Shown here one piece after another: positions 7,210-49,847 of a stretch of 64,000 bases of DNA; the first letter of the stretch is position 1, and the number at the start of each line of letters is the position of its first letter. The position numbers were made by a program, and so were the translations under genes. The DNA lies in NCBI GenBank assembly GCA_043228905.1, contig JBHGNT010000008.1:21266001-21330000 (forward strand), given 5' to 3'. Source of the stretch: Azolla caroliniana. Its lineage: Eukaryota; Plantae; Polypodiophyta. Under the pieces are notes generated by a model. The model was not told where the DNA came from and did no database searches. It saw nothing but the letters and a program-made list of their open reading frames with translations.

Positions 7210-9684
7210 TTGAGGTATCAAAACCCTTGGGTAGACTCAAAGAAACAACATGTCTTTGGCAACACCAAAAAAGGAAAGAAATTGTTGTTTAACAAAGACA
7301 TAACTGAGCAACCCTCAGACGAATTTAGTCAGAAAAAGGTGGTGGCTATAGTGGGGGGTGAAGACTTACTTGACAAAGATATGACTGACCACGAGTGGGC
7401 ATTACAATATGTCCACTCGAATAAAAAGCTCGTCTTATTGACAACAAGAAACAAGGGTCATGGACAACTTGCCAAAGAATGCCCATTTTGTTATGGCCAG
7501 GTCTTGTGACTTGACTATGAAGACCCGGAGTAAGAAAAATGTACATGTCTAAAGATCGATTGGTAAAAGAGTCTTCTGGCCCAGAATCTTTACAAGTCGC
7601 TATCGAGACATCTAATAACTTGATCACAACATTCAGACCATACATTAAAGGCCATGTGGCATTAAGAGAACCATCACCAGTCAAGGTGGCACCAAAAAAG
7701 GTTGCCAATCAATCGAGGCCACCCAAAAAGAAAATATCAAAAAGGTTTGAATCTGAGTCTTCTTGTTCGACAAATGACGAAGAAACACAGGCTACACTAG
7801 GGGCAGAGCTTGCCTTTGGTGTGTTGTCATCTGAACAAAATAAAATCCGAAGAGAAATAATGCAGAAGAAGCTTGTGCGAAATGGCTCAGTATTTAACCT
7901 TCCCATTACCCACATCCACTGGCCCCTTATTGATGCTAGAATGGGACGAATAACACTTGAGATAATAGAGCCACACAAGTTTCATCTCCGAAACTTAAAG
8001 AAAAAGATGAAGATTAATCCCCATGCCACAGTTGTGCCCTTTATTGTTATGGTTGATCTTGTTGAATGTGCAACTATAGAAGAATTCGATGTGAGAAAGC
8101 ATGACCAATACAACTACTTTGTTATTGGTGGATCACATTTGGCTAAAGCACGAAGGCAACTAGTAAGAGAACATCCTACGACCTTCTTCTTCAAGTATGC
8201 CGAATTCAAAATTTACGTGGGTGTAACGACTGAAGAGGCGAAATGGCTGGTGTGGGATCATAATAATGAAAATGATTATAGACAAAAGATGTCTTCCATC
8301 GAGTGAATAAGATTCCTCCACCATGATTATTTATTTAGATGCCAAACAAAAGTTTGGTCTAAAGCTCTACCCAGGGCTAAGGCGTTAATGTCTTCATGAT
8401 GTTGGCATTGTCATGGATGACAACGTCAACTTGTCTAATGGTCTACGAAAATATGAGTCTTGGTTTCAACTAACATTTTGAGATGGGGACGTGTGGGATC
8501 TACAAGATCACATATTTACAATGTGGAGAATAGGGAGGTCAAGGGACAAAGGCAAAAGAAATCTCGAGTCAATCCCCAGCTAGACTAAAGTCAACAATGG
8601 GCAAAAAGGTCGACGTCACAATTGAAGAAGCTATCTTAGTGGAGAGATATGCAAGGGATTAAATATGAGCAACTACTTGTTTCGATTTTGTCGAGAGCCA
8701 TGGCCAAGGAGTTAAGCTTGGAAGAAATGGTCACAAAGTTCAACAAGTAAATTCTTTATCAGTTTATTAATTTGTAAGTGTTGGGCCTTTGTGAGATATC
8801 CGGAGCTCTAATGTGTCTTATTGATTTTACAACCATAAGGTATATATGGAGATACAAGAAGTTATGATGAAGCACCTTGGATGCATAACTAGATTATCCG
8901 ATGACATCTTCTTATAAGGCGTTGTTGGAATACTTTATTGCATTCAAGGATTGGGTTAGTATTTTTCTTTTATTTGGCATTCTATTATGGTTTATATTTT
9001 TACTATTAACTAAGACACTTTTTCTATTGTAACTATTAAAAACCTTGCCGTGGCAAGAAACCAGGAGAGGTCAAGGATATACATGGCTTTCCAACGTCCT
9101 TTCTTACACATCTTGAAAGAGATAGGAAAGAAAAGGATCAACGCTTAGTGAAACCATACGATGTTGAAGACAATGGAACTTCCAAGAAATTCAACCACAA
9201 AAAGGACATCACTAGAGACTTATACTATAATGACTTTTGTGGAGATGTGGTAGAGGTAAACCTGAATCTACCAAAGAAGGACTACAGTCTGCTTATTGCA
9301 GATATACCTTAGGATTTTCGCATGGCAAGTTTCTCTTATGATGATGAACCGTTTAGGTTCAAACAACTAGAAAACATGGTAAAAGATTTTGTGAAACTAA
9401 CCACAACGTCCTTGTGGAGAATTGTTGTGTTTCATAGAATGGACCAAGGGTACTCTATGGCTCAGGCATTGAGATCTCGCTGCCATGGCATTGCGAAACT
9501 TGCTTCGTAAGGATTATATATTGTGATAAGTTGAATAAATTTATTTGTCTATGATTCTTTCTATTTAATTCTGAATTGTGTCTTCTGGTTCCTTGTGATT
9601 GACAGGATAAAAACCAATGTGAATAGAGGACCAACATTTCGGTTCGTGAATGAAATTGAGTACATAACTATTGGTTATTTCGAT
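7210..9684 (+). pseudogene. Intron-containing ParB/Srx-like domain + amino-(N6A/N4C) DNA methyltransferase-like gene, decayed and truncated by a copia LTR
   Basis: ORF 7539-8306: VVPFIVMVD..YFVIGGSHLAKAR..KIYVGVTTEEAKWLVWDHN..MSSIE (ParB N-domain pattern). From 9241: GDVVEVNLNLPKKDYSLLIADIP*(TAG; DIPY if restored). After a GT..AG intron (~9507-9605): (S/W)IKTNVNRGPTFRFVNEIEYITIGYF, like the beta-class MTase WxK..E motif. Confidence 0.6.
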
Positions 9685-19044: not shown

Positions 19045-19508
19045 TGTTGAGAATCAAGCTCAACCTATTCTAGTGTGTGAACACAACTTTTGAGAATCTA
19101 TGAGCACTCAAAGGTCAAAGGTCACCACTACTTTCTACACATTAACTATGTGTCATAGAATCACATTCTATGACACATAACTAATGAGTTCCATATTCCC
19201 AATAACTAATGAGTTTCCACATTCCCCACGGTTCTAGAGAGAGAGTGGGTGTTTTAGTGAGAGAATGTAGAGAGAGAGTGACCTTATATAAAGCACCCCC
19301 CTCCTACTTTGTAATGTGTTGGTTAATCTCCTTTGTAATATTCATATTGTTATAGTTGTTCTCCACTTCCTAATACATACATCTTTTTGAGTATTTCATT
19401 TTTCCTATCTATGTATTTCCTCTCCTCTCCTCTTTCCACACACACACAGACACATAACACAAATCCTTAATCTATTCCACTGCATAGAATCACACTCGAT
19501 TCTTTACA
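19045..19508 (+). repeat. 3' LTR of copia B family
   Basis: TGTTGAGAATC...TCTTTACA; homologous to 9685-10120. Confidence 0.9.
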
Positions 19509-21014
19509 TCCCACTCCAGATATTGATTTGTGTCCCTCAGTGTCATATATCACACACTCATCAAGACTTTATCAAGCTCCAAGATCAAGGCTCTTTTTTC
19601 GACTTCTAATGGTTTAGGTTTCCATTCCTATAACTGAGCCTCTGTTACACCAATTACTGGTAGCACACGATCAATTTCAATCAATTGAGGTTCTATCGGC
19701 ACAATTGGTGTCCTTTTCCTCTTCAAACCCCTAGTTAACTGTGTTGGGCCTGGCTTCACATTTTGGTGCTCTTGTATTGTCGACTTAGTCATTAGCTCAG
19801 TGCATGTTGATACTGATCTGGTCGATATCAGCCCACTGGTATCACATGTTGCATCTACCTGCAAAATCAAATCATCTGTGCAACATGCTTGATCAACTTG
19901 CGAGACCAGATCATTTGTGTCAATTGCTACATCTACTTTCAAGATGTGGCCCTCAAAACATGCAACAACATCAACAGTTTCCACACTGCCATCGGCCTTA
20001 GGAGCAATAGATTCAAACCCTTTAGACTCTGCAACATCAGAAAACACCAACATATTCATACTCACAAAGTAATTAATAGTCTCACAAAACAACATAATGA
20101 ACATGAAATATTTTCCATCATAGAGCAACATGAACATAATTATCGTGGAGAAACATCATAGAGTTCCATTACATAATGTGGATCAAGCAACAACCAATCT
20201 GAGGTTTTACTTGTCCAAATAGATCGTAGTAAAACTTCATAAAACCCTAGGAAAATCGCTAACAATCATATCCCACTAATAAGTATTTCGCTCCAATTCA
20301 AGAGCCCCTTGACCGAGTAACTGTTCTTGTCCCCGATCGTGGCCCCTTCTTCAACCTTTTTCTAACTGGTTGCCCATTTAGCCTTGCTTCTTTGACCCAT
20401 TGTGCAAGTGTGTCCTCCTTCGACAACCTTTCCATCACCTCAGCAGCGGCTTGCACGTCAGCCGCATCTTTCGCTAGCTTTTCCAATACAATGCGATTTG
20501 TTTAGACATTATCAGTAGTTAGGCTCAGTGGGTGGAATCAAGGTTTTGGGATTTGAAGAAATGTTGCATCAAGTGTTCAAAAACACTATTGTTGTGAACC
20601 TCAGATTTACATGTTATTTCTAATATTTCATGGCTTTTCACATCGTTGCCTAATTCAGTACCATCTTCCAAAAGAATAGGGTGGAGCTTATCTGAAGGAT
20701 ATGTGATAGCAGGACTCTTACTTTCAGCCACATTAGCAACTATCTCCTCATTGGTTGCAGCCAGCACCAGACACCTCATGTGCCCTCCTTAATCCACAAG
20801 ATTCCACAACAACATGGTCACTAATTAGCTACATCTTAGCTAACTAGCTATTCTTCTAGACTATGACAGTAGCTAATTAGCTACCACTGAGCTAATTAGC
20901 TACTTCTCTTAGGTATGGTACTAGATGATTAGCTACCACTTAAGTCGTTGGCATTTGTTGTTATTGTTTGTTAATTAGCTACCACTTAGTTAAATGATTA
21001 AGTCGAGCTTAAAT
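19509..21014 (-). mobile_element. Older, decayed copy of the Sola2-like element, left piece (HAD-like cargo gene fragment, 168-aa ORF homolog, start of palindrome array)
   Basis: ORFs 19628-20137, 20298-20486 and 20525-20779 are diverged homologs of 26729-27862 and 28033-28539; AGCTAATTAGCT units from ~20819. Confidence 0.85.
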
Positions 21015-21018
21015 AGAA

Positions 21019-21043
21019 GGGTGAAAGCATGCGAGTGGAAACA
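21019..21043 (+). repeat. Left TIR (25 bp)
   Basis: GGGTGAAAGCATGCGAGTGGAAACA. Confidence 0.92.
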
Positions 21044-21371
21044 ATTAGCTATGTCCTTGACATAGCTAATTAGCTATGCAAAAAGCTACCATTGATAAAT
21101 AGTCATTTTAGTAAAAAGCCATCATTAATAAATTAAGTATGCAAAAAACTACCATTGAAAATACTAGAGTGTTTTAATTACATATGTAAATGAGTGCCAT
21201 AAATGTGCAACATAAATTGATGTGTGCACCATAAATGTGTACCATAAATTATATATCGAATTCCTAGGTCCATTATGCATGATCCTTTGCCACATCACGT
21301 AGGCCATCTCTAGTTGAGTACTGTGGGTTAGTTGCTACCACTGTTGCTAAACCCTATCGAGTCCACCTGCC

Positions 21372-22190
21372 GCCACTCTACACTGAGGGGCCGCTACTGT
21401 GCGTTCCAAGCATCATCAAAGAGCTGCTCAATCTGACAGGGTTCTCTTCTCTGTGACACTCTACACTCAGGGGCCACTACTGTGCATTCCAAGCATCATC
21501 AAAGAGCTGTTCAATCTGACGGGGTTCTCTTCTCTGTGCCACTCTACACTCAGGGGCCATTACTGTGCGTTCCAAGCATCATCAAAGAGCTGTTCAATCT
21601 GAGGGGGTTCTCTTCTCTGTGCCACTCTACACTCAGGGGCCATTACTGTGCGTTCCAAGCATCATCAAAGAGCTGTTCAATCTGAGGGGGTTCTCTTCTC
21701 TGTGCCACTCTACACTCAGGGGCCGCTGCTGTGCGTTCCAAGCATCATCAAAGAGCTGTTCAATCTGACGGGGTTCTCTTCTCTTTGCCACTCTACACTC
21801 AGGGGTTGCTACTGTGCGTTCCAAGCATAATCAAAGAGCTATTCAATCTGACGGGGTTCTCTTCTCTTTTCCACTCTCACTCAGGGGCCGCTACTGTGCG
21901 TTTCAAGCATCATTGGTAACTGTTCAATCTGACGGGGTTCTCTTCTCTATGCCACTCTATTCTCAAGTGCCTTCTATGTGCGTTTCAAGCATCATCGGTA
22001 ACTGTTCAATCTAACGGGGTTCTCTCCTCCATTGCCATCATTCTATACTCAGTTGCCACTACTGTCCAGTCCCTGATTGCTTCCACATTTCGATTTGACG
22101 GAGTTCACTCATCCAACGGCAACATTCTACACTCAGTTGTTGCCATTGGTCGGTCTTGGATCGCCTCCTCAACTGTTGGATCCAACAGAG
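21372..22190 (+). repeat. 83-bp tandem minisatellite (~9-10 units, degenerating rightwards) upstream of the transposase
   Basis: Unit GCCACTCTACACTCAGGGGCCATTACTGTGCGTTCCAAGCATCATCAAAGAGCTGTTCAATCTGA(C/G)GGGGTTCTCTTCTCTGT; ORF-track starts recur every 83 nt (21399, 21482, 21565, 21648, 21731, 21814). Confidence 0.95.
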
Positions 22191-22360
22191 TGAAATCCTC
22201 TACTGTTCGGTCTTGGATTGCAATAACTTTTCTGTCTATTGATTATCTTGTGTATTGTTGTGTCTAATCTTGTGTATTGTGTGGAATATTTTTGTGTATT
22301 GTTGTTGCCCATAGCCATCTTTAATACTTGTTTTTTTTTCTGGAAATTTAGGGTTTTAAC

Positions 22361-25300
22361 ATGTCTAGCCAAATGGAAGGGGAAGAAGGGTGTTTAGAAT
22401 TACCCCTCAATGATCATAAGGATAGGGATGATGTTATCAGGACACAACAAGCCATACGAAACTATTGGGCAGAAAAAAAAAGGAAACATCGTCAATTGTT
22501 GAAGGATACGAAAGCCACACTAAGTAAAGGTAAGGATAGTTTAGCTGAGAATGTAAGTAATGCGACTACCATCATAGAGAGAAAGGTTGTAGACTATTTC
22601 AATGTTCAAACCAAGCACATCAGCAATGAAGAAAAGAAGGTAGTACTTTATGGAATATGTAATGATCCATCGATAAAGGACTTAGTTGATTGTGATGGTC
22701 TTAATGCAAACATATCATCTATTTTAGTAAATAATCTTCGTAATAGTTTCGTATCCATGAGCAGGTTAGAAGATGATCTTGTCTTAAAAAGGTCTAGTCT
22801 AATGATGTTACTTAATAGTGATGTTGACGATATAAACATCAGTGAGCTATCTAAGGTAATTGGTGTTAGTAGAAAAACAGTGTACAATACAATGAACCGT
22901 ATAATTTCCTCGGGTGAAGGAACTAGTCTACTAAAGCTAACTACAAGATGTAAGCCAATGACACCCATAACATTTGAAATCAAGGATGTAATCACAATGT
23001 TTTGGACTAATGAGAGTAGGGTTTCACCCAATAAAAAGGATTTATGCAGGAAACGTGTTGGAAGAAATCAATACGAGGAGCATCCCATTCATCTTCTTGA
23101 TGTACCTCAGGTATTTACATTTATCTCAACATTTGTTTTGACTCTACTCGGAAAGTTAATTAGCTCAGTTAGCAGAAAAGCTAATTAGCTTATCAGTTAC
23201 ATTTACCTCAGTTAGCTACTAGGATCGCTACTACATAGGTAACTAGCTACTCTCAATAGTTACTACCATGATAGCTAATTAGCTATTCTCAATAGCTAAT
23301 TTAGGTACTACCAGATAATTAGCTGTACTGCTAGCTAGTTAGCTATCATGGTAGCTAGTTAGCTATTTCGTTATTACCAGCTAATTAGCTACTAGGAAAG
23401 CTAATTAGCTACCATGATAGCTAATTAGCTACTATGATAGCTACTACATAGGTAACTGGCTACTCTCAATAGCTACTACCATGATAGCTAATTAGTTAGG
23501 ATAGCTAATTAGCCACCATTATAGCTAATTAGCTACTAGACCAGCTAATTAGCTACCATGATAGCTAATTAGTTACTAGGACAGCTAATTAGCCACCGTG
23601 ATAGCTAATTAGCTACTATACCAGCTAATTAGCTACCATGATAGCTAATTAGTTACTAGGAAAGCTAATCAGCCACCATTATAGCTAATTAGCTACTAGA
23701 CCAGCTAATTAGCTACCACGATAGCTAATTAGCTACTAGACCAGCTAATTAGCTACCATGATAGCTAATTAGTTACTAGGAAAGCTAATTAGCCACCATG
23801 ATAGCTAATTAGCTACTAGACAAGCTAATTAGCTACCATGATAGCTAATTAGTTACTAGGAAAGCTAATTAGCCACCATGATAGCTAATTAGCTACTAGA
23901 GCAGCTAATTAGCTACCATGATAGCTAATTAGCTACTAGGACAACTAATTAGCTACTAGGACAGCTAATTAGCTACCATGATAGCTAATTAGCTACTACG
24001 ACAGCTAATTAGCTACCATGATAGCTAATTAGCTACTAGAATAGCTAATTAGCTACTAGAATAGCTAATTAGCTACCATGATAGCTAATTAGCTACTACG
24101 ACAGCTAATTAGCTACCATGATAGCTAATTAGCTACTAGGACAACCAATTAGCTACTAGGACAGCTAATTAGCTACCATGATAGCTAATTAGCTACTAGA
24201 ATAGCTAACTAGCTACTAGAATAGCTAACTAGCTACTAGAATAGCTAATTAGCTACTAGGATAGTTAGCTAGTTACGAGAATAACTAATTCCCCTTTATT
24301 ACGTAGGTCGATTTATTTATTAGGTTCAAACGAATGCATCCAACTATCAAAGTTCAACTACGAACATTCGAGTCTCTTAAGCCACACTTTGTGAGACGCT
24401 TAAAGGATCGATACACATGTTGTTGCATTTACCATGTACAGATGGGTTTTCTGAAGGACTCTGTTAATCTACTACGTCACCATAGCGCATCCCTAACTAA
24501 TACAGTTTGCACATGTGGGTGCCCAATCTGTCGATCAAGCCCGCAAGAGGAGTGTAAATCATCTGAGCACGTTATCTCTTCCATGAGTTATTTATTAGAT
24601 TCAATATTGTGTCCGAGAGAATCTGACGCTATCTTCCATATTCATAAATGTGTCATGGGTTTATGTCAAGATTGTGGCCCTACTAGATTTAGGTGGTGTC
24701 CAAATGAATTGAGTAGTGAAATATTGATCTCTGTGAAGTTATTTGAGTCAGTGAACACCAATTTCGAAGGAAAGGTGTGTAAAAGAAAGGATCTAGTTCG
24801 GAAGATGCTTAAACCAAGGGATTTGGTGTCTCTGTTTGTAGTATCTCTAGGAAAGTTCATTAAACACAACTTCATTTATTCATGGCAGGCCCATCAGTTT
24901 AAGACTTGCATATCTGATTTCCCAAATGATGTAGTAGTCTCAGTAGTAGATTTCGCAGAGAATTATACTTTCAAGCAGCAGAATGAAATTCAATCTATGC
25001 ATTGGTGTTCAGTTCAGGTAACCATTTTTGTGCACATAACATATTTTCGAGTTTCAGGTGATGTTAAAAAAGTAATTCATTTCTTTATTTCCGATGATAA
25101 GAAGCATGATACCTTGTTCGTCCAACACTGTTTTAAGTTACATTGGCAGTGGTTATTAGCTCAACGTTTGGAGCTTACTCAACATTGGGTCTGGTCTGAC
25201 GGAGCTGCGTCACAATTCAAGGCTCGACGTCCATTTTATTTTGTGGGGAGGTATCCTGCTATAACAGGTTTGGAGATGAGATGGAATTTTTTTGGGTCTG

Positions 25301-26148
25301 GCCATGGTAAAGGTGAACATGATGGTGCAGGGGCTGTTATAAAGCGGGCACTTACCCATGAACAACTAAAGACAGATGGTGTGCACATGAATTGTGCATC
25401 ACATGTAGTTGAATTTTTAAGAACAAATATGTCGACGAGTGCCACAGGTGTTTATTCCTCGCAAGTTCGAGATATCAAACGTGAATTTTGGGAAGTGAAG
25501 ATAGATGAAGTAAATAGGGAGAAGACCTGGGAGTGCCAAGGAATTCCCGAATTGCGATCTCTGCATGCTGTTCGCGGTTATTCCAGGTTGGATGGTCATT
25601 GTATTGCGGTTAGAGAATTGACTTGTTTTTGCTTCCATTGTGTGCAGGGAAATTGGAGATATTGTCTAAACAAAGCATACATTCAGAATTGGGAGTATCA
25701 CACTCTGAATGATAAGGAAGCAGTTGATGGAGAAACAGGGCAGAATGCTGACTTCACATATGAGGGACTTGGAGATACTTTGAGTGATGTCCTGAACGTT
25801 GGGGATAACTTCGCTGTAAATGCTGAAGAAGGCAATTCAGAGGGTGCTGATTTCTATATATTAAAGTGCACGGTTAGTAAACAGTGTGCAAGGCAGAATA
25901 TTGTAGATGCATGGGGAAATTTTGTATCTGCCGGGACATTCTACATCGAAGGCATTTTTTATGCAAAACTAGATGACTACGAATATGTGTACAGGCTGTT
26001 AGAAGACAAACCAGCGGCGTATATGTACTCTCATTTGGTCAGATGCATCAACGTCCCAATGTCAGAATACAATAGCTGCTCCGGTTTATACACTGTTGGT
26101 GCTAATGTGTATGAATGTATTTACAATAGTATGCCATGGAATTTGTAG
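22361..26148 (+). CDS. Sola2-like DDD transposase, two exons (22361-23110 + 24307-26148, ~863 aa)
   Basis: Donor CCTCAG|GTATTT and acceptor ACGTAG|GTCGAT join in frame (..LLDVPQ-VDLFIRFKRMHP..); HTH-like ISELSKVIGVSRKTVY; TCCCIYH and Cys clusters; catalytic-type VVDFAENY, WSDGAASQFK, GHGKGEHDGAG; same splice sites in the second copy. Confidence 0.88.
23160..24290. repeat. Intronic array of the palindrome TAGCTAATTAGCTA
   Basis: Dozens of copies at ~20-bp spacing separated by short linkers (CCATGA, CTAGGA, CTAGAC). Confidence 0.97.
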
Positions 26149-26583
26149 CTACAAGTAGCACTTACCATGTTCTCTTGTAAAACAAACATGTATTTCGCGA
26201 AAACAGATCAATAAATTCGTTTGGAATCAATTTCTTGTATACAGTCTGCTTTCTGTGCTTCTTTCTCAATAAAATCATGTCTTTTTTGTTAAGTTTTAAG
26301 TTATAAGTTATAGAGAAATAGTCATCAGTAGCTAATTAGCTGTACAAATGTATTTACAATAGTATGCCATGGAATTTGTAGCTACAAGTAGCACTTACCA
26401 TGTTCTCTTGTAAAACAAACATGTATTTCGCGAAAACAGATCAATAAATTCGTTTGGAATCAATTTCTTATATACAGTCTGCTTTCTGTGCTTCTTTCTC
26501 AATAAAATCATGTCTTTTTTGTTAAGTTTTAAGTTATAAGTTATAGCGAAATAGTCATCAGTAGCTAATTAGCTGTACAAATG
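26114..26583 (+). repeat. Near-perfect 233-bp tandem duplication of transposase stop and 3' UTR
   Basis: AATGTATTTACAATAGTATGCCATGGAATTTGTAG.. at 26114 and 26347. Confidence 0.95.
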
Positions 26584-26728
26584 CAGCTAATTAGCTGTCA
26601 ATAGCTAAATAGTCATCAATAGAATGAAATCAACAATCTGCAACATATTCCTCAAATTACACAGTAGATAAGTACAGTGGGAACAAGTAATTAAATTCTT
26701 CATTGAATAATGTCATCTCTTTACATAT

Positions 26729-27862
26729 TTATAAATTACCATTGGAAATGTCTACAAATCTCCTATAAACAGCTAAGCTCTTGCTAGTCAGTGGAACGAG
26801 TCTACATATATTATCCGCATATTGAGCTCGGTATGGAGTCCACAACCATGCACCTAGTTGGCAGCTCACTGTTTGCACCAGGTACTGTTCAGGCATTTCC
26901 TCGGGTAGAATGAGACAGCATCTCCGAATATTGAAGTAGTGTCGGAAATGTTCTGTATCCAAAATCAATGTATTGTCAGCATTATATTCAGGCCAAGTAG
27001 CCCAAAAATCAGAAAGTCTCTTGAATCTTGCAGCTTCCATCTGCTCACAATTTTCTCGTGCCCATTGACCTTTAAAACGACTTCGCCATTTTGGGAAGAA
27101 TCTTGCCAAACACTTCCACACATCTGATTTTGGTTTTTCACTCCAAATAAACAAATCAAAGTACTCCACAGCCCACTCTAGAAACTGATTTGCGTCCCTC
27201 CTTGGCTGCATATATCTCACACTCATCAAGACTTTATCCAGCTCCAAGATCAAGGCTCTTCTTTCGACTTCTAGTGGTTTAGGTTTCCATTCCTGAAACT
27301 GAGCCGCTGTTACACCATTTTCTGGTAGGATACGATCAATCTCAATCAGCTCAGGTTCGGCTGACACAACTGGTGTCCTTTTCCTCTTTAAACCCCTAGT
27401 CGACTGTGTTGGGCCTAGCTTCACATTCTGGTGCTCTTGTTTTGTCGACTTAGTTATCAATCCTTGGATTACCTCAGTGCATGTAGCTACTGTTCTGCTC
27501 GATATCAGTCCACTGGTATCACATGATGCATCTACCTGCAACACCAAGTCATCCGTGCTACATGCTGCATCTACCTGCAACACCAAGTCATCTGTGCTAC
27601 ATGCTGCATCTACCTGCAACACCAAGTCATCCGTGCTACATGCTTGATCAACTTGTGTGACCAGATCACTTGTGTCAGTTGCTACATCTACTTTCAAGAT
27701 GGGGCCCTTTAAACATGCCGCAACATCAACAGTATCCACACTGCCATTGGCCTTACGAGCAATAGAATCAAACCCTTTAGACTCTGCAACATCAGAAAAC
27801 ACCAACATATTCACACTCACAAAGTAACTAATAGTCTCACAAAACAATATCCTGAACATCAA
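26729..27862 (-). CDS. Cargo gene: FCP1/SCP (NIF)-type HAD-fold protein with degenerate catalytic motif; probably spliced upstream (acceptor near 27783)
   Basis: RRALILELDKVLM (cf. LDLDETLV), QFLEWAVEYFDLFIWS, FKRLSDFW..EYNADNTLILD; N-terminal 13-aa repeat CSTDDLVLQVDAA x3; basic LKRKR. Confidence 0.65.
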   Translation of the reverse strand: MMFRILFCETISYFVSVNMLVFSDVAESKGFDSIARKANGSVDTVDVAACLKGPILKVDVATDTSDLVTQVDQACSTDDLVLQVDAACSTDDLVLQVDAACSTDDLVLQVDASCDTSGLISSRTVATCTEVIQGLITKSTKQEHQNVKLGPTQSTRGLKRKRTPVVSAEPELIEIDRILPENGVTAAQFQEWKPKPLEVERRALILELDKVLMSVRYMQPRRDANQFLEWAVEYFDLFIWSEKPKSDVWKCLARFFPKWRSRFKGQWARENCEQMEAARFKRLSDFWATWPEYNADNTLILDTEHFRHYFNIRRCCLILPEEMPEQYLVQTVSCQLGAWLWTPYRAQYADNICRLVPLTSKSLAVYRRFVDISNGNL

Positions 27863-28032
27863 AGAGTTTCAGTCATAGAACAACACTCTTCAAATTATCT
27901 TGGAAAAACATCATAGAGTTCCATTACATAATGTGGATCAAGCAACAACCAATCTGAGGTTTTACTTGTCCAACAGGATAGTAAAACTTCATAAAACCCT
28001 AGCAAAATCCCTAAGCTAACAATCATATCCAA

Positions 28033-28539
28033 CTAAACAGTATTTCGCTCCACTACGTCTGGGCCCCTTGACCGAGTAACTGGTCTTGTTCCCGATCGTG
28101 GCCCCTTCTTCAGCCTTTTTCTGGTTGGTTCCCCATTTAGCCTTGCTTCTAGGACCCAATGCGCAAGTGTGTCCTCCTCCGACAACCTTCCCATCGCCTC
28201 AGCAGCTAATTGCACATCAGTCGTTTCTTGAACTAGCTTTTCAAGTACAGAGGGATCTGTTTGGACATTTTCAGTAGTTGGGCTCGGTGGGGTGGAATCA
28301 AGGTCTTGAGACTCGAAGAAATGTTGCATCAAGTGTTCATAAACACTGTTGTTGTGAACCTCAGTTTTACATGTTGTTTCCACTATTTCATGGCATTTCA
28401 CATCGTTGCCTAATTCAGTACACTGTTCCAAAAGAATAGGGTGCAGCTGATCTGAAGGAGATGTGATAGCAGGACTCTTACTTTCAGCCACATTGGCAGT
28501 AGTATCCTCATCTGTTGCAGCATCATCAGCACCAGACAC
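28033..28539 (-). CDS. Element-borne 168-aa acidic/basic ORF, possibly an upstream exon of the HAD-like gene
   Basis: Conserved in the older copy (20298-20779); NLS-like RKRLKKGPR; no recognised domain. Confidence 0.5.
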   Translation of the reverse strand: MSGADDAATDEDTTANVAESKSPAITSPSDQLHPILLEQCTELGNDVKCHEIVETTCKTEVHNNSVYEHLMQHFFESQDLDSTPPSPTTENVQTDPSVLEKLVQETTDVQLAAEAMGRLSEEDTLAHWVLEARLNGEPTRKRLKKGPRSGTRPVTRSRGPDVVERNTV

Positions 28540-28591
28540 ATCATGTGCCGTCCTTAATCCACAGGATTCTACAATAACATGACAGTTATTT

Positions 28592-30358
28592 AGGATAGCT
28601 AATTAGCTACTTTACTAAACTATGGTAGAAGCTAGGATAGCTAATTAGCTAGTACGATAGCTAATTAGCTAGTATGATAGCTAATTAGGTACTTTACTCA
28701 ACTATGGTAGTAGTTAGGATAGCTTATTAGCTACTAGGACAGCTAATTAGCTGCCAGTAGCTAATTAGCTACTAGGATAGCTAATTAGCTGCCAGTAGCT
28801 AATTAGCTACTAGGATAGCTAATTAGCTGCCAGTAGCTAATTAGCTACTAGGATAGCTTATTAGCTACTTTACACAACTATGGCAGTAGCTACTAGGATA
28901 GCTAATTCGCTAGGATAGCTAATTCGCTAGTAGGATAGCTAATTAGTTGCCAACAGCTAATTAGCTAGTAGGATAGCTAATTAGCTACTAGGATAGCTAA
29001 TTAGTTGCCAGTAGCTAATTAGCTAGTAGGATAGCTAATTAGGTACTTTACTCAACTATGGTAGTAGCTAATTAGCTAGTAGGATAGCTAATTAGGTACT
29101 TTACTCAACTATGGTAGTAGCTAATTAGCTAGTAGGATAGCTAATTAGCTACTAGGATAGCTAATTAGCTGCTAGTAGCTAATTAGCTACTAGGATAGCT
29201 TATTAGCTACTTTACACAACTATGGCAGTAGCTAATTAGTTACTAGGATAGCTAATTAGTTGCCAGTGGCTAATTAGCTAGTAGGATACCTAATTAGCTT
29301 TTTTACACAACTATAGTACTAGCTAATTAGCTAGTACCATAGCTAATTAGCTACTAGGATAGCTAATTAGCTAGTAGGATAGCTTATTAGCTACTTTACA
29401 CAACTATAGTAGTAGCTAGGATAGCTAATTAGCTACTATGGTAGCTAATTAGCTACTTTACTCAACTATGGTAGTAGCTAGGATAGCTAATTAGCTACTT
29501 TACTAACTATGGTAGTAGCTAGGATAGCTAATTAGCTACTTTACTAACTATGGTGGTAGCTAGGATAGCTAATTAGCTACAATGAAAGCTAATTAGCTAC
29601 TTTCTCAACTATGTAGTAGCTAGGATAGCTTATTAGCTACTAGGACAGCTAATTAGCTGCCAGTAGCTAATTAGCTACTAGGATAGCTAATTAGCTGCCA
29701 GTAGCTAATTAGCTACTAGGATAGCTTATTAGCTACTTTACACAACTATGTCAGTAGCTAATTAGCTACTATGATAGCTAATTAGCTAGTAGGATAGCTA
29801 ATTAGCTAGTAGGATAGCTAATTAGTTGCCAGTAGCTAATTAGCTAGTAGGATAGCTAATTAGCTATTTTACACAACTATGCTACTAGCTAATTAGCTAG
29901 TACCATAGCTAACTAGCTACTAGGATAGCTTATTAGCTACTTTACACAACTATGTCAGTAGCTAATTAGCTACTATGATAGCTAATTAGCTAGTAGGATA
30001 GCTAATTAGTTGCCAGTAGCTAATTAGCTAGTAGGATAGCTAATTAGCTATTTTACACAACTATGGTACTAGCTAATTAGCTAGTACCATAGCTAACTAG
30101 CTACTAGGATAGCTTATTAGCTACTTTACACAACTATGGCAGTAGCTAATTAGTTACTAGGATAGCTAATTAGTTGCCAGTGGCTAATTAGCTAGTAGGA
30201 TAGCTATTTAGCTTTTTTACACAACTATGGTACTAGCTAATTAGCTAGTACCATAGCTAATTAGCTACTAGGATAGCTAATTAGCTAGTAGCTCATTAGC
30301 TGCCAGTAGCTAATTAGCTAGTAGGATAGCTAATTAGAAAAGACTAAGCTTATTAGCT
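28592..30358. repeat. ~1.8-kb array of TAGCTAATTAGCTA palindromes with higher-order repeats
   Basis: Direct reading; linkers CTAGGA, GCCAG, CTTTACACAACTATGG. Confidence 0.97.
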
Positions 30359-32039
30359 ACAGTATGGTATACCTGTTTGTTTTCTCCACTCATTTGGTAG
30401 AGTTGTACTGCAATCTCCCAAACAGAATGCAGCAATTCGACAGGCATGTTGAAAACAAAGCAGATGGTATGTGTGGTTGCATGGTTGTAGGTGAACCAAC
30501 AAAGACGCAGTTTTGTCCTCCACACCTAACCCGCAAGCGATGCAACGTGCTTGAACTGTCAATAAATCATTTTCTGGTTCTACTTCATTTGGTAAGGGAG
30601 CAAGAATGTTCAGGTCCAAATCCTGTTTGGTCCTTACCATTCCCTCCACAAAATGTAGCTTCTTCTTAAGGCAGCTAACTACCTGTTCTTGATGAATGTA
30701 TTGTTCCTTCAACGCAACAGAGAAATTTACCGATTAATTATTCTTGTTGTTGAAAGATACACCAACTTTGCTCAGGAATCGTTAACTTACTTGAAGCTTA
30801 TCCAAATTGTAATCTGCAACAGTATTTACACCTAGAAGGTCCAGGTTCATTGAAAGAACCTGGATCTCTATTTGCAGTTCTATTTTACGCTGGGGATCCA
30901 GTGGCCCCTCTAATTCAAGCTCCTGTTGCGCAACCTATTCAAGATAATGCTTGATTAGCACATTTTACCCGTTATTTATAACACAATCACATACCAGCAA
31001 AACAATAGTTACCTGAATCTTATTTCTAATTGTTGTAACAGCAGAAGTAACTTTGCTCTCCATTGCAGAAGCCATTGTGGCTTTCTCTAAATCAGTCTTA
31101 AAAAATGCCAATGTCTCACAGGCTTCATGGACATTTTTTAGCATATAGCTAACCAATGTCTCACCTGTATCATCGACATTGGCTTTCCTTGGGTGTCGGT
31201 GTGGTGTATGCCCCCGGTCTTGCTGGGAGTCGGCAGTTGCATCAACAGCTGCCATGCTCCAAAATCTGTCTATTTTTTGTGCCAAGGTCCCCATCTTTCG
31301 ACATCTTTTTACCGATGCCTCACCATAGACTGCCCAAGCTACCCTATACATTTCAGGGTCTCTAGATTCCTTCGCTGTTTTGCAGTACTCATATGCAAAT
31401 GCTCTAGCAAATGAAACTGACAACTCATTGTTGACTGGGATCTCCTGATGAACTTTCTGGTGCAGTCTCATGCAGTCATCGTACAAGTCGGCTCGTACAT
31501 GCTTCAGCTTGACCTTGCCTTTGACTCTAGGCACTGTATATACTGTCATCCAGTCTATATCACTGATCAATTTATCACTTAGGACAGCAGGGTCAACACC
31601 CTCGAGTGACAGACCATAGGTGTTGTGGAAGTCCTCCTTTGTCTCGCAAAATTTTGCGAAGTTTAGCACTCTCGTATACGGAGGAACGAGCCATCTGAAA
31701 TATCATTACAAAAATAAGAAATAGTGCAAAATCAGAATATGTGAGAATCAAAAACCCCAATCAACAACAACAAAAATGGTGCAAAATCTTTAACTTAGCA
31801 AATCAGAAACCCTAATCATAATTTGTAATCAAATTTCTAATTTGTAATCAAAATTTGTAACCAGAAACCCTATTCAGAAATTCTAATCAGAAATTTATAA
31901 TCAAAAACCCTAATCAGAAATTTCAATCACAAACCCTAATCAGAAATTTCAATCACAAACCCTAATCACTAAAGACAGGATTAAACACAAAAAAAGTAAT
32001 ATAAACACACCTGTTGCTACTCCCCGATTTGTGAGACAT
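30353..32039 (-). CDS. Cargo gene: spliced protein with C-terminal RING-H2-like finger
   Basis: Predicted exons 32039-32011 (ATG..AACAG|GTGTG) and 31694-31013 (TTTCAG|ATGG ... ATTCAG|GTAACT) give MSHKSGSSNRWLVPPYTRVLNF..; distal ORF 30353-30712 has CIAC..LQPCNHTYHLLC..CLGDC; middle exons unresolved. Confidence 0.6.
31800..31970. repeat. Cluster of telo-box-like AAACCCTAA motifs in ~27-bp repeats, inside the predicted intron
   Basis: AAACCCTAATC at ~31807, 31905, 31931, 31957; AAACCCTATTC at ~31865. Confidence 0.7.
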
Positions 32040-32493
32040 CCTTGTATGGGACTCCAAGGACTTCGCCCTATTCGATTTTGGGGAAATATGAATCGGCACC
32101 AAAGTTCAAACAGTAGTCAAGAAGAAAAAACAAATGTTTGGGGTTTCTGTAACTGAAACATACTTGGACGATGATCGAGCGGGTTCTGTGTTGTAGCTCT
32201 CAATCTGCAATGTCGATTTTTTGCTGTTGCGGGAGCTACGTCTGCGTTCGTGCTCTGAGTACTCCATCTGCGTTCAAAATCAGACTTAGGCTAAACAGGA
32301 AATTGATGACATTGAAGTCGACCTTAGATGATGGTGATATTCCCCAAGTTCCACTACGTCTGAAACAGAAGTTCAAATATTTGAGTTTTTTCATAAATTA
32401 GTTTTTCAAATATTTGATTTTCCCACAAGAAAGACTAGCTAAACAAATAGCTAATTAGCTATGGCCATTTTAGTAGCTAATTAGCTATAATAG

Positions 32494-32518
32494 TGTTTCC
32501 ACTCGCATGCTTTTACCC
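32494..32518 (-). repeat. Right TIR (25 bp)
   Basis: Reverse complement GGGTAAAAGCATGCGAGTGGAAACA. Confidence 0.92.
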
Positions 32519-32559
32519 AGAAGCCATTTGGTTGGAGAATCTTGGAACTTTATAGCCCA

Positions 32560-33130: not shown

Positions 33131-33565
33131 CTGCTTAGCTGTTTATAGGCGATTTGAAGACATTGGCAATGGGATGTTATAAATATGTAATTTGATGACA
33201 AATTAATAAATGAAGAATTAAATTGCTTGTTTTGAGTAACTTATCTACTGTGTAATTTTAAGAGTATGTTCAGGATTGTTGATTTCATGATAATGCTTTT
33301 TCTTATAATTATGCAAACTAATTTAACTTGTACATGGTTCACTTGAGTAAATCTGTATCTCAGAAAGAAGAACCCTAAACGATATTATTAAACTGTATAT
33401 CAGAAAGAAGACTATTAATAAAAAAGACACATGATTTTATTGAGAAAGAAGCACAAAAAGTAAACTGTATATAAAAAAAACTCCCAAAAAGGTCCATTAA
33501 ACTGTTTATTTGCAATACATGTGCTTTGTTTGTTTTACAAGAAAACTGGTAATTGCTACTTGTAG

Positions 33566-36500
33566 CTACAAATTCCATGGCATACTGTTGTAAATACATT
33601 CATACACATTAGCACTAACTGTGTATAAACCTAAGTAGCTATTGTATTGCGGCATTGGGACATTGATGCACCTGACCAAATGTGAGTACATGTATGCCAC
33701 TAGTTTGTCTTCTAATAGCCTATACACATAATCATAATCCTCTAGTCTTGCATAAAAAATACCTTCGATGTAGAATGTCCCGGTAGATACAACATGTCCC
33801 CGAGCATCTAATATATTCTGTGTTGCACACTGTTTACTAACCGTGCACTTCAATATATAGAAATCAACACCCTCTAAATTGCCTTCTTCTGCATTCACAG
33901 CGAAATTATAGACATCACTCAGAGTATCTCCACGTCCTTGATATGTGAAGTCATAATTCTTTTCTGTTTCTCCATCAACTGCTTCCTTATCGTTCAATGT
34001 ATGATACTCCCAATTCTAAATATGTGCTTTGTTTAAGCAATACCTCCAATTTCCCTACACACAATGGATGCAAAAACAAATTAATTCTCTAACCGCAATA
34101 CAATGAGCATCCAACCTAGAATAACCACGAACAACATGGAGAGATCGCAATTCGGGAATTCCTTAGCACTCCTAGGTCTTCTCCCTATTTACTTAATCTA
34201 TCTTCACTTCCCAAAATTCACGTTTGATATCTTGGACACGAGGAATAAACACCAGTTGTACTCGTTGACATATTAGCTCTTAAAAATTCAACTACATGTG
34301 TTGCACAATTCCTCTACACACCATATGCCTTTAGTTCTTCATGGGTAAGTGCCCGCTTTATAACAACACCTGCACCATCATGTTCATGTTCACCTTTACC
34401 ATGGCCAAACCCAAAAAAATTCCATCTCATCTCCAAACCTGTTATAGCAGGATACCTCCCCACAAAATAAAATGGACGTCTAGCCTTGAATTGTGACGTA
34501 ACTCCATCAGACCAGACCCAATGTTGAGTAAGCTCCAAACGTTTAGCTAATAGCCATTGCCAATGTAAGTTAAAACAATGTTGGACAAACAAGGTATCAT
34601 GCTTCTTATCATCAGAAATAAAAAAATGAATTACTTATTTAACATCACCTGAAACTCGAAAATATGTTATGTGCACAATGGTTACCTGCGCTGAATACCA
34701 ATGCATAGATTGAATTTCATTCTGTTTCTTGAAAGTATAATTTTCTGCGAAATCTATTAGTGAGACTACTACATCATTTGGAAAATCAGATTTGCAAGTC
34801 TTAAACTGATGCGCTTGCCATGAATAAATGAAGTTGTGTTTAATGAACTTTCCTAGAGATACTACAATTAGAGACGCCAAATCCCTTGGTTTAAGCAACT
34901 TCCTAACTAAATCCTTTCTCTTACACACCTTTCCTTCGAAATTGGTGTCAACTGACTCAAATAACTTGAAAGAGATTAATATTTCACTACTCAATTCATT
35001 TGGACACCACCTAATTCTACTAGGGCCACAATCTTCACATAAACCTATGACACATTTATGACTGTGGAATATGGCCTCAGTTTCTCTCGGACACAATACT
35101 GAATCTAAAAGAAAACTCATCGAAGAAATAACATGTTCAGATTATTTACAGTGCTCATGCGGGCTCGATCGACAAATTGGGCACTCACAAGTGTAAACTG
35201 CATTAGTTAGGGAGGTGCTATGGTGATGTAGTAGATTAACAGAGTCCTTGAGAAAACCCATTTGTACATGGTAAATGCAACAACATGTGCATCGATCCTT
35301 CAAGCATCTCACAAAGTGTGGCTTAAGAAACTCGAATGTTCGTAGTTGAACTTTGATATTTGGATGCATTCGCCTAAACCTAATAAATAAATCGACCTGT
35401 GTAATAAAATGGACATACTGATTAGCTCTATGGCTAAGTGGGTAGCTAATTAGCTACTACCATAGTTTAGTACAGTAGCTAATTAGCTAAGTGGTAGCTA
35501 ATTGGCTACTTAGCTAATTAGCTACTACCATACTTCAGTTGAGTAGCTAATTAGCTAATATAATAGCTAATTAGCTAAATGGTAGCTAATTATCTACTAC
35601 CATAGTTTAGTACAATAGCTAATTAGCTAAGTGGTAGCTAATTAGCTACTACCATAGTTTAGTACAGTAGCTAATTAGTTAAGTGGTAGCTAATTAGCTA
35701 CTACCATACGTTAGTTATAGTGGCTAATTAGCTCGCACCATACTTTAGCTGAGTCTCTAATTAGCTAATTGGTAGCTAATTAGCTACTACCATACTTTAG
35801 CTGAGTCTCTAATTAGCTAATTGGTAGCTAATTAGCTACTACCATACTTTAGCTGAGTAGCTAATTAGCTACTACCATAGTTTAGTACAGTAGTTAATTA
35901 GCTAAGTGGTAGCTAATTAGCTACTACCATACTTTAGCTGAGTAGCTAATTAGCTAAGTGGTAGCTAATTAGCTACTACCATAGTTTAATACAATAGCTA
36001 ATTAGCTAAATGGTAGCTAATTAGCTACTACCATAGTTTAGTACAATAGCTATTCTAGTAGGGGATTAGCAATTCTAGTAGCTAATTAGCTATTCTGGTA
36101 GCTAAATAGCTATGTCCGATATTCTTAGGGAGCTAATCAGCTATTCTAGTAGCTAATTAGCTATTACCAGTAGCTAGTTAGCTATGGTCATATTTTGAGG
36201 TAGGTAATTAGTTATTCGGGTATGGTCATATTCAAAGGTAGCTAATAAGCTAACTAACTAAGCTCAAAATTCAAAACAAATGTTGAGATAAATGTAATTA
36301 CCTGAGGTACATCAAGAAGATGAATGGGATGCTCCTCGTATTGACTCCTTCCAACACGTGTCCTACATAAATCCTTCTTATTGGGTGAAACCCTACTCTC
36401 ATTAGTCCAAAATATTGTGATTATATCCTTGATTTCTGATGTTATGGGTGTCATTGGCTTACATCTTGTTGTTAGCTTTAGCAAACTAGTTCCTTCACCC

Positions 36501-37064
36501 GAGGAAACTATCTGGTTCAATGTATTGTACACACTTTTTCAACTAACACCATTTACCTTAGATAGCACATTGATGTTAATATTGTCAACATCACTATTAA
36601 GTAACATCATTAGACTAGACCATTTTAAGACAAGATCATCTTCTAACCTGCTCATGGATACAAAACTATTACAGAGATTATTTACTACTACAGATGTTAT
36701 GTTTGCATTAAGACCATCACAATCAACTAATTCCTTTATCGATGGATCATTTAATATTCCATAAAGTACTACCTTCTTGTCTTCATTGCTGATGTGCTTG
36801 GTTTGAACATTGAAATGGTCTACAACCTTTCTCCCTATGATAGTAGTCTCATTACTTCCATTCTCGGTGATATTTAGACCTATATCACAACCAATACTAT
36901 CTTTACCTTTAGTGAGTGTGGCTTTTGTATCCTTCAACAATTGACGATGTTTTCTTCTTTTTTTCTGCCCAATACTCTCGTATCACTTGTTGTGTCCTAA
37001 TAGCGTCATCCCTATCCTGATGATCATTGAGGGGTAATTCTATATACTCTCCTTCGCCTTCCAT
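33566..37064 (-). pseudogene. Sola2-like transposase pseudogene (copy 2)
   Basis: ORF fragments 36539-36940, 36254-36532, 35142-35369, 34635-35120, 34314-34592, 33566-33997 colinear with the intact copy; stops and frameshifts. Confidence 0.92.
35420..36262. repeat. Intronic TAGCTAATTAGCTA palindrome array of copy 2
   Basis: Same core, different linkers (CTACCATAGTTTAGTACAG, AAGTGG). Confidence 0.95.
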
Positions 37065-39194
37065 TTGGCTTGATGGGTTTAAACCCTACTTTTCCTGAAA
37101 AAAAGACACGTATTAAAGATGGCTATGGGCAACAACAATACACAAAAATAATCCGCAATACACAAGATTATACACAACAATACACAAGATAATCAATAGA
37201 AAGAATAGTTATTCAAATCCAAGACCGAACAGTGGTGGTAATTGTTAGGAAACAGGTCCCTCTGGATGGGAAGTGAGAAGAACAGTGTTGATGAGCAAAC
37301 TCGGTCGAGGCTGAATCCGGATGTGGAGTACCCGACAACGGAAGACCCAGTGAGAACCGGATAACGAGTACCTGACAAGGAATACCCGGTGAGAACCGGA
37401 TGTTGCAGGCCCGATGAGAACCTCTCATCGGATGGAAGGGACATATATGTAAATATGTTCCAGAGAGCTCACTAGGGCTATATTTGTAAATAGCCCGAAA
37501 GTCATATTAGTATAAATATGACCTAGGGCAAACTTAATAGTGATGATGATAGAGTTATTGGTGTAACTTCTGTACAATGTGTAAGAGAGAGAGAGAGAGA
37601 GAGAGCGACATACCGAGATTGTGCCTCTATTGTAACCGCCTGGTGGCGAAGCGAGGGAGCAAGAGGTTGTTGCCCCTGTGCCCCATTGTTGTAACCTTGA
37701 TATAGTGATATTTTGCAGTCTGAGAGCTACCGTGGTTTTTCCCATATATGGGTTTTCCACGTTAACATCCAGTGCACTCTCCTCTTTACTGTTTCGTGTT
37801 TAGATACATCTCTCCACATCCCTGTTTTATGTGATTGTTTCAACGTCTCAGTTGTGGCCGAGCATAGCTTAGGGAGGCGTATTCCTATCAAAGTGGTATC
37901 AGAGCAAAACGACACAGAAAAATGGACGATTCGTTGGGAGCCATGTTCAAGCTCACCAGCTCCAACTATTTAGTGTGGAAGTTGAAGATGAGGGACATGC
38001 TCGTGGTTAAAGATCTTTGGTTGCCGGTTCAGTTCGGGGATAAGAGATCGGACAAAATCAATGCCACGATATGGGAGGTGATGCACATGAAGACAACGAC
38101 GTATATAGGGTGCTTCATCCACATGAGTCTATACAACAACTTCAATGAAGAGAGCAAGGCTCATGAGCTCTGGGAGAAGATGGGCATTATGTTTCAGAAC
38201 AAAAATGTTGTTAATCAGGTTTCGGTATTTTGCAAGCTAGTAAGACTCCGGTACCAAGATGGCTCCAGCATGGCGGAGGACATGAATGCCTTCCAGGGGC
38301 TGATCCACCAGGCAACATCATTGGAAGTACCTCTCGCCGATGAGGTACTAGCACTACTCCTGCTCGGTTCCCTCCCAGATAGCTAGGAGATGTTGGTTGT
38401 CACTTTGGGCAACGCCAGGCCGGAAGGGAAACAGTTATCCCTGGCAAGAGTGAGGTCGAGCTTGCTAGATGAGGAGGCGCGTCGGAAAGACAAGGATACG
38501 AACTCCGACTCCAAAGTGCTCATTACCGAATCGGAACGCGGAAGACAAAGGAACCGTAGTCCCCAGAAGCCGGAGAAGTCGGGGACACGGTCAAAGTCAA
38601 GGGGCAGGCCTACCTGCTTCTATTGCGGTAAGTCGGGACACTTCCAGAAGAATTGTCGGCATTCCGAAAAGACAAGGAAACCGATGGTACCGATTCAAAG
38701 CAGACACCGGATTGGAACGGTAAAGACCGGAGGGGAATAGACTGGAAGGGAACGACGGAAATCGCGGCAAGTGAAGAAGAGTTGATGCTCATCACCGAGG
38801 AGAGTGAGCTAAACCTTGCCGGCGACGAGATGACCTGGGTGGTTGCCTCCGGAGCATCGTTCGACCTTACCCCAGACCGAAAATGCTTCTCATCCTACTC
38901 AGCTGGTGATCACGGCTGTGTCCAGATGGGGAATGAAGGTACATGCCGAATTGTCGGCATAGGAGACGTGTGGTTGAAAACACCAACCGGATGCAAGCTG
39001 CTGCTGAAGGATGTTCGACACGTTCCGGAGGTTTGTCTGAACCTGATATCAGTCGATCGGCTAGATGATGAAGGCTACACGGGTAGCATCCGGAACGGTG
39101 TTATGAAGTTCAGCAAAGGGAGCCTGATTGTGGCTCAGGCCCAGAAGGTAAAATCATTGTACCTGATGAATGCCCGGTTATGCCCAGAAGAAGT

Positions 39195-49790: not shown

Positions 49791-49847
49791 AGCCAGAATA
49801 CTCAACCATAGATGGCCCACATGATGTGGCAAAGGATCATGCATAAG

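Follow-up and report, generated by a model that had tools for sequence, protein, structure and literature searches.

Intronic arrays of a subterminal palindrome in a fern Sola2 transposon as candidate binding sites for its own transposase

In a young Sola2 transposon of the fern Azolla caroliniana, a palindromic motif located 25–70 bp inside both ends recurs about 125 times within two predicted introns. Judging from sequence comparisons, we propose that these arrays are the amplified end motif and may be sites for dimers of the element's transposase, which would coat the introns of both genes and keep cognate copies transcribed; we favor this explanation tentatively, giving it slightly less than an even chance of being correct.

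A complete Sola2 element with a spliced cargo gene

The window, the whole stretch of 64,000 nt that was analyzed, contains a complete young Sola2 DNA transposon of 11,500 bp (21019–32518, forward strand), bounded by 24-bp TIRs with one mismatch (21019–21042, forward strand; 32495–32518, reverse strand) and by the 4-bp target site duplication (TSD) AGAA (21015–21018 and 32519–32522). The element has many near-identical copies; both ends were found in 19 of the 20 copies examined, and the TSD was of 4 bp in all 20 two-ended elements, the window element included, and of 5 bp in none. Short TIRs and a 4-bp TSD are shared with described Sola2 elements (PMC3627910 and its Additional file 10; PMC10741241), as are the catalytic motifs DFAENY, SD..HD, SDG..QFK and HGK..DG when the window protein is compared by eye with the published alignment (PMC3627910), and the catalytic residues are invariant across 42 homologs. 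A VANDAL/VANC element would be expected to have a Mutator-type transposase; exon 2 matched no Pfam family and the Sola2 motifs and 4-bp TSD are found instead. The element differs from described Sola2 in its length of 11.5 kb, in its conserved spliced cargo gene and in the kilobase arrays of the subterminal motif within its predicted introns, neither cargo gene nor intronic arrays being described for Sola2 in the accessible parts of PMC3627910 and PMC10741241.

The transposase gene consists of exon 1 (22361–23110, forward strand), an ORF with a predicted helix-turn-helix (HTH) at about 22799–22915, a GT-AG intron (23111–24306) that holds array 1 (23153–24255; 50 units, 20-bp period), and exon 2 (24307–26148), which contains the Sola2 catalytic region and completes a spliced protein of 863 aa. 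The exons join in frame, the splice sites are conserved, and one presumed-RNA contig spans the join, with just 20 letters on its short side; reading through into the intron leads to a stop at 23186–23188. Fourteen of 20 young copies keep the spliced ORF open, the intron varies from 756 to 1560 bp in 20 copies, and dN/dS is 0.37 for exon 1 and 0.15–0.16 for exon 2. The HTH matches Pfam HTH_11 (E 5e-5) with 23.5 bits, under the 25-bit cutoff; structure models of exon 1 were poor (pLDDT 41 and 55), the best Z in a fold search was 4.8 and the best E in a PDB sequence search was 0.047.

On the reverse strand, cargo exons 1–4 (32039–32011, 31694–31013, 30934–30791 and 30706–30373; span 30373–32039) encode an N-terminal domain without assigned function, a helical region and a RING-like finger, with dN/dS of 0.13–0.39; two introns among them are joined across in presumed-RNA contigs of related copies (one study). 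Array 2 (28596–30359; 75 units spaced 18/20/33 bp) lies between a GT donor at 30372 and an AG acceptor at 28569, both conserved in young and older copies. It is followed by a predicted exon (28482–28568) in frame with the RING exon, whose frame is also open on to a stop at 28033 and whose donor, AAA|GTAAGA, is present in 37 of 38 copies, and by a predicted last exon (26729–27783) with an acidic region and an FCP1/NIF-like domain (Pfam NIF E 4e-8; dN/dS of this part 0.21–0.31), which is likely inactive since the first Asp of DxD is Glu. The first-pass annotation took array 2 for a spacer between cargo genes; because it lies between conserved GT and AG sites that join two exons in frame, we interpret it as a predicted cargo intron (28569–30372; 1374–2211 bp in 20 copies), although no presumed-RNA contig spanned it. 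Two separate genes are also disfavored by fern homologs whose single gene model covers all the domains, and fern protein P0194 has the same domain order as the cargo.

Other remnants of the family in the window are an older-copy fragment that retains cargo exons plus the last part of the array (19506–20940, reverse strand; 80% identity to 27168–28671), an older, broken transposase gene (33133–37233, reverse strand) whose intron array (35443–36252) has different linkers, and an older cargo fragment (59331–60468, reverse strand) with an array at 59351–59792, adjoining the left end (59160–59329) of another copy. Searches of the same genome with P0002 and P0022 for diverged Sola2 families retrieved the young family alone among 72 and 70 scored candidates, respectively.

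The end motif is amplified in both predicted introns

Allowing one mismatch, the motif TAGCTAATTAGCTA has 147 matches in the window versus 0.03 expected from 100 shuffles. Besides arrays 1 and 2, they lie near both ends (21063, 32448 and 32474), at 26329 and 26562, and at 20818–20935, 35443–36252 and 59351–59792, so that the motif is present at every place named in the first-pass annotation. The palindrome is less perfect than first described: with units defined by up to three mismatches, the 14-bp sequence is exact in just 17 of the 50 units in array 1 and 37 of the 75 in array 2, and its 12-bp core AGCTAATTAGCT in 30 and 45, respectively. Motif density in the arrays is about 40 copies per kb. 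With one mismatch allowed the 12-mer has no match in the exons tested, in the other cargo introns or in the 5′ noncoding region, where an 83-bp tandem repeat (21372–22029, forward strand) lacks the motif. Within the element, the motif is found at both ends, in two GT-AG-bounded regions and 3′ of the transposase stop.

The left subterminal region (21043–21076) comprises a half-site and a full palindrome (21063–21076), and is retained in older copies and in a MITE; its ATGTC-nnn-GACAT core also occurs at the ends of families L042 and L047. Two palindromes lie at the right end (32448–32487). The small cluster 3′ of the transposase stop (26329–26622) resembles one found in a Copia LTR (see below); its copy at 26329 is part of a 233-bp duplication, and no such cluster was seen in older copies.

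Genome-wide, the exact 12-mer occurs 27,017 times and its reversed control just 15 times. Of the first 76 sites listed for contig C1, 68 belong to this Sola2 family, one cluster of 28 sites being assigned by its position beside a transposase match. These figures rule out a generic satellite. A literature search for the 12-mer found nothing related.

Related families build arrays from their own end motifs

In a transposase clade of nine sequences (support 100/99), all five metagenome members whose intron 1 is covered by 600 bp or more carry a tandem array there, and the motifs track the transposase tree: L044 and L045 have one, L046 and L048 another, and L047 and L042 their own. Arrays occupy the same intron in at least four families, each built from that family's own motif, and many more distant relatives are without one. 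As L044–L048 share one assembly prefix, a single host likely harbors several motifs. An automatic search for a TIR pair with TSD found none in 80 metagenome loci, and left ends of the relatives were therefore inferred from TIR-like sequence. In the four families with a recognizable left end, the top intron 8-mers had 12, 2, 3 and 5 matches in the family's own first 150 bp (shuffle p 0.002, 0.026, 0.010 and 0.002) versus 0–1 at the ends of other families, so that a family-specific motif clusters at the termini of four Sola2 families, robustly in three and weakly in one; for L042, the match held both ways in just 4 of 12 parameter settings.

Since related families use other motifs in the same way, the arrays are likely bound by the element's own transposase, and the identity with the subterminal motif of each family favors the transposase HTH over a VANC-like cargo protein as the binder. 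The putative recognition helix is nearly constant among subfamilies sharing a motif and different between families; as helix and motif both track the tree, this alone does not show co-evolution. We envisage that slippage or unequal exchange would generate the arrays and that selection among active elements would retain units with an intact core. The exon-1 HTH would be the binder, end copies would serve transposition and internal copies activation or anti-silencing, and motif and protein would change together between families.

The binder could also be the cargo protein, as an accessory anti-silencing factor like VANC or TnpA, which we consider somewhat unlikely. Cargo exons are under purifying selection (dN/dS 0.13–0.65), and an FCP1-like exon adjoins the transposase in L044 and L047, so that the cargo protein shares the same history; in the accessible parts of the sources, VANC targets occupy terminal noncoding regions as well as the introns of the two genes (PMC5735166), and TnpA binds subterminal motifs (10.64898/2026.08.24.746577). 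However, Pfam revealed neither a VANC domain (DUF1985/DUF287) nor any DNA-binding domain in the cargo pieces or in 49 relatives, and the array-bearing L042 and L114 have no FCP1-like exon in the 2.4–2.7 kb past the transposase in their incomplete contigs. An ESM Atlas search with the cargo N-terminus gave no usable match.

Core retention amid changing linkers and array lengths

The claim that the core is retained as linkers and array lengths turn over holds when unit types or subfamilies are compared. Array 1 has 24 established 20-bp unit types; the consensus at the 13 core positions is kept in 20–24 of them, and at the six linker positions and the first T in 10–22; linker spectra of young array 1 and older arrays have a cosine of 0.10–0.17, with the core unchanged. 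The further claim that arrays re-expand independently does not always hold for the two introns: in one older group their linker spectra have a cosine of 0.93. In some older arrays the central AT ranks with the least constrained positions of the core (0.79–0.90), as would suit a spacer between half-sites.

Conversely, new mutations do not spare the core. In array 1 there are 26 private variants in 13,188 core bases and 5 in 5,652 linker bases, with four ambiguous ones set aside in what is a small test that under-detects linker changes; core and linker rates are 3.66 versus 1.11 per kb at G/C (p 0.054) and 1.21 versus 0.68 per kb at A/T (p 0.75). As private variants strike the core at least as often as the linkers, the core is not protected from mutation, and there was no sign of its hairpin-based repair.

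The arrays might be passive minisatellites that began from a copy of the end motif and persist because splicing removes them, with function in the end copies only. Array lengths up to twofold apart in near-identical copies, the passage of units between both introns, a potential preferential amplification of hairpin-prone units and the lack of arrays in many relatives are all in line with this. Nevertheless, it is an unlikely explanation, because the same intron is filled in at least four families, each from its own motif, and because the core rather than the linker is retained across established types; besides, hairpins are not needed for arrays, since that of L042, which is one-directional, does not fold.

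The motif in a MITE and in an unrelated Copia LTR

The motif-bearing element ends are also retained in a 297-bp MITE, of which there are at least 40 similar copies, and an unrelated Copia family has 2–5 motif copies near the LTR start in all 29 LTRs examined, a position at which a cut-and-paste site would have no obvious use; both observations are in line with the transposase explanation. The LTR copies also fit a host factor or simple sequence transfer. A homeodomain protein or another transcription factor of the host could bind the motif, whose core has TAAT/ATTA, and the arrays would then be intronic enhancers; ZF-HD proteins are reported to bind ATTA repeats (PMC1920248). We judge this quite unlikely, because the motifs differ among Sola2 families of one assembly prefix, track the transposase tree and match each family's subterminal DNA, and because the LTR cluster and the 3′ cluster of the young element have linker sequence in common (87% over 47 nt), so that the former may have been transferred.

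Lastly, the idea that excised introns fold into long imperfect hairpins yielding small RNAs that regulate the element, raised as an alternative in the first-pass annotation, is very improbable: although 400-nt pieces of both arrays fold far better than shuffles (z −17.9 and −11.0) and those of four other families fold as well (z −3.5 to −9.9), the equally long array of the closest other family, L042, does not (z 0.1), which makes a shared role unlikely, the longest helices in the window arrays are of just 13–17 bp, there is no Rfam match, and the end copies and the MITE are left unexplained.

Comparison with known self-activating elements

Within the accessible parts of the cited works, self-activation is documented in flowering plants for Mutator-like and Spm elements (PMC5735166; 10.64898/2026.08.24.746577), the AtMu1 transposase and Spm TnpA both switching on cognate copies via clustered motifs (10.64898/2026.08.24.746577). 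In AtMu1 and Spm an HTH domain occupies an exon of its own, its putative counterpart here being the sub-cutoff HTH of exon 1; as in those systems, the Sola2 families have clustered, family-specific motifs mirroring element phylogeny. Published AtMu1 and Spm motifs, transposase binding and hypomethylation are, however, at termini and not intronic, whereas motif copies in the window element are mostly internal. The accessible text of that work (10.64898/2026.08.24.746577) has no occurrence of Sola.

VANDAL/VANC systems (PMC5735166; PMC10398659) share with the window element a short family-specific motif, dynamic tandem repeats in introns and noncoding regions, units that evolve together, and presence of the motif in an unrelated element, there AT9TSD1 and here the Copia LTR. 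The window element differs in its superfamily, intact TIRs, palindromic motif and lack of a DUF1985/DUF287 match, and in that its motif is the subterminal one. The analogy with VANC arrays drawn at first extends to a family-specific motif among relatives, but the motif equals the subterminal one and Pfam gave no VANC domain. In Galileo, a Foldback-like element (PMC3688188), transposase DNA-binding sites also occur in tandem beyond the end-proximal site, but inside long TIRs, whereas here the sites are predicted, the TIRs have 24 bp and the repeats are in predicted introns. Literature searches found nothing on subterminal motifs of Sola in mosses and, judged by title, none on such arrays for bryophyte anti-silencing or fern Sola.

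More speculatively, and doubtful as a whole, fern Sola2 elements may be in an anti-silencing arms race waged through the transposase, in which its site gave rise to kilobase intronic arrays in each family, motifs switched with the HTH, retention of the array intron possibly produced an HTH-only regulator, and an unrelated Copia retrotransposon took the motif into its LTR so as to profit from that activator. With the Copia LTR, it could be tested whether one class of transposon exploits the activator of another, and the families with different motifs are ready protein–DNA pairs for swap tests of specificity change. If either the transposase or the cargo protein binds the arrays, sequence-specific transposon self-activation would reach a third superfamily and seed-free plants, the amplification of an end motif inside introns being an independent route to it.

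Motif Arrays Lie in Predicted Introns of a Sola2 Element

The element (21019–32518) belongs to Sola2. It is bounded by 24-bp TIRs and the TSD AGAA, 4-bp TSDs being a known feature of Sola elements (PMC3627910, PMC10741241), and its transposase motifs agree by eye with the Sola2 alignment that accompanies PMC3627910 (Additional file 10). Twenty copies were fetched, picked among 40 scored left-end matches that also had a transposase match; the right end was present in 19 of them, and a 4-bp TSD in all 20 elements with both ends, the window copy included. Identity to the window copy was mostly 97–99.5% outside the arrays, and a search with the transposase core gave 1,333 first-look candidates, the 150 scored being 97–100% identical. 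The spliced transposase has 863 aa, with the reading frame intact in 14/20 copies; named homologs occur in mosses, liverworts, ferns and conifers, and those of the cargo in the fern Adiantum, which would make the host a seed-free plant and probably a fern. An older copy lies on the minus strand, and a Gypsy-like LTR element (~49850–59155) appears to interrupt its left part (48244–49846 plus 59160–59329).

A scan allowing one mismatch retrieved 147 motif matches in the window, versus 0.03 expected, and bore out every motif location in the first-pass annotation. Its description of a perfect palindrome held for the exact 14-mers, 17 of the 50 units in array 1 (23153–24255) and 37 of the 75 in array 2 (28596–30359), but not for the other units. 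No 12-bp core, with up to one mismatch, was found in the exons tested or in the 5′ noncoding region. Other repeats, all without motif arrays, are 83-bp tandem units 5′ of the transposase (21372–22029), a 233-bp duplication at its 3′ end (26114–26583) and in-frame 39-bp tandem units in the cargo (27521–27644); elsewhere, 49-bp repeats with a different palindrome (6352–6481 and 7129–8306) lie upstream of an ORF without a Pfam match.

Both arrays occupy predicted introns. Array 1 was correctly placed in a transposase intron, which is GT-AG, separates an HTH-like exon from the catalytic exon, and is joined across by one RNA-guess contig with just 20 letters on one side. Array 2, in contrast, probably lies not in a spacer between cargo genes but in a predicted cargo intron: the flanking donor and acceptor, conserved among young as well as older copies, join the RING-like exon in frame to the next exon, with no bridging join among the RNA-guess contigs. 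Read-through from exon 1 into intron 1 (23111–23188) reaches a stop after 25 codons, and retention of this intron would yield an HTH-only protein. A further cargo donor, in 37/38 copies, would link on to an FCP1-like exon, giving a single 776-aa protein with the same domain order as the fern protein P0194; two upstream cargo introns were joined in contigs from one study. Between subfamilies dN/dS was 0.13–0.65, and below 1 in every coding part. The cargo N-terminal domain (31262–31669, minus strand) belongs to a family of ~150 clusters (P0146–P0292), without a Pfam match for this domain among the 49 clusters scanned, and some of the clusters bear RING, NIF or retrotransposon gag domains. That the cargo protein, rather than the transposase, binds the motif is unlikely.

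Core and Linker Variation in the Arrays

Among the 20 young copies, intron 1 measures 756–1,560 bp and intron 2 1,374–2,211 bp. The 942 in-register units of array 1 included 24 types each present in at least four copies; the consensus was kept in 20–24 of these types at 13 core positions, and in 10–22 at the linker positions and the first T. Copy-private variants numbered 26 in the core versus 5 in the linker (4 ambiguous excluded), so new mutations do not spare the core; the numbers are small and linker changes under-detected.

The 40 older copies, grouped by the search that found each and not by a tree, retain the core in both of these introns, with different linkers and spacings (19/33, 20/21), as read from the 15 intron-1 and 8 intron-2 sequences with both ends in the fetched stretch. 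Linker spectra of young array 1 and of the older arrays show little resemblance (cosine 0.10–0.17). One older group has units common to both introns (cosine 0.93), so arrays are not always independent. We regard as improbable that the arrays are passive minisatellites.

The Motif Elsewhere in the Genome

Exact copies of the 12-mer number 27,017 genome-wide, versus 15 for the control. Among the first 76 sites listed on one contig of the source genome (C1), 68 were in the window family or its MITE, which speaks against a generic satellite, seven in a Copia LTR and one was isolated. The MITE (L167, a source-genome locus, 761–1057; 297 bp, TSD ACTA) has an exact left motif and right motifs with mismatches in the fetched copy, and at least 40 copies share 92–100% identity (40 scored of 1,092 candidates).

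The unrelated Copia family was seen at source-genome loci L163–L166, L169 and L170–L199 (G000), and thirty Copia LTRs were picked with a motif-free query. All 29 in which the LTR start was located carry 2–5 motif copies near it, as 18-bp units in variable number within the first 200 bp. This cluster resembles the 3′ cluster of young Sola2 (window 26543–26622; 87% over 47 nt), which was not found in older copies, making it likely that the cluster passed between the Sola2 3′ region and the Copia LTR, in either direction. A host factor as binder of the motif appears less probable still than passive repeats.

Related Families Carry Their Own Intron Motifs

A metagenome scan yielded 80 loci. In a tree placing 74/81 proteins, the window transposase fell within a nine-row clade (support 100/99); in all five metagenome rows of this clade that cover 600 bp or more of intron 1, a tandem array occupies that intron. 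Each motif varies with the family, following the transposase tree: GTGGTAATTAGTAG with CTAATAGTG in L042 (60% identity), ATGCTA-NN-TAGCAT in L044, with a half-site in L045, AGTACCAA in L046 and L048, and AGGTGAAA..TTCACCT in L047. L088, which falls in a separate clade, carries TTAGTACTAA in a different intron, and many distant rows of the tree showed no array. Strong folding of the window arrays would suit a small-RNA source, but the L042 array does not fold, and such a role is very improbable.

For the four families with a recognizable left end (window, L042, L047, L088), the top intron 8-mers had 12, 2, 3 and 5 matches in the first 150 bp of their own family (p 0.002–0.026) versus 0–1 in the ends of the others; the match was robust in 12/12 settings for the window, L047 and L088, and held both ways in 4/12 for L042. 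The intron motif recurs within 600 bp 3′ of the stop in the window, L042, L044, L046 and L048, the L044 motif set also matching L048, and was not found within that distance in L047. An ATGTC-nnn-GACA(T) inverted repeat with family-specific flanking arms lies equally far from the left end in the window (21051–21063), L042 (1790–1850) and L047 (39–100).

A Putative Transposase Binding Site

The motif adjoins the inner side of both TIRs, usually as an inverted pair of half-sites. In TIR elements in general, a subterminal motif of this kind is taken as a transposase binding site. Most simply, the motif is a putative transposase binding site, because it lies inside both TIRs, is kept in the MITE, forms inverted half-sites and changes with the transposase; repeated transposase binding sites have a precedent in PMC3688188. 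Repeated intronic amplification, together with the copies near the LTR start, suggests a use beyond end cutting, in which the transposase would bind the amplified intronic copies.

Clustered motifs mediate the activation of cognate copies by the transposase of AtMu1 and by TnpA of Spm (10.64898/2026.08.24.746577), and VANC targets are dynamic repeats in introns, also present in an unrelated element (PMC5735166). The element is not a VANDAL, because neither the Mutator transposase nor the VANC domain of VANDALs was found in it. A search outside subscription journals and Repbase retrieved no paper that describes arrays of this kind for Sola elements. Tentatively, we read the arrays as amplified putative transposase binding sites for self-activation, the element plausibly working like VANDAL/VANC or TnpA.
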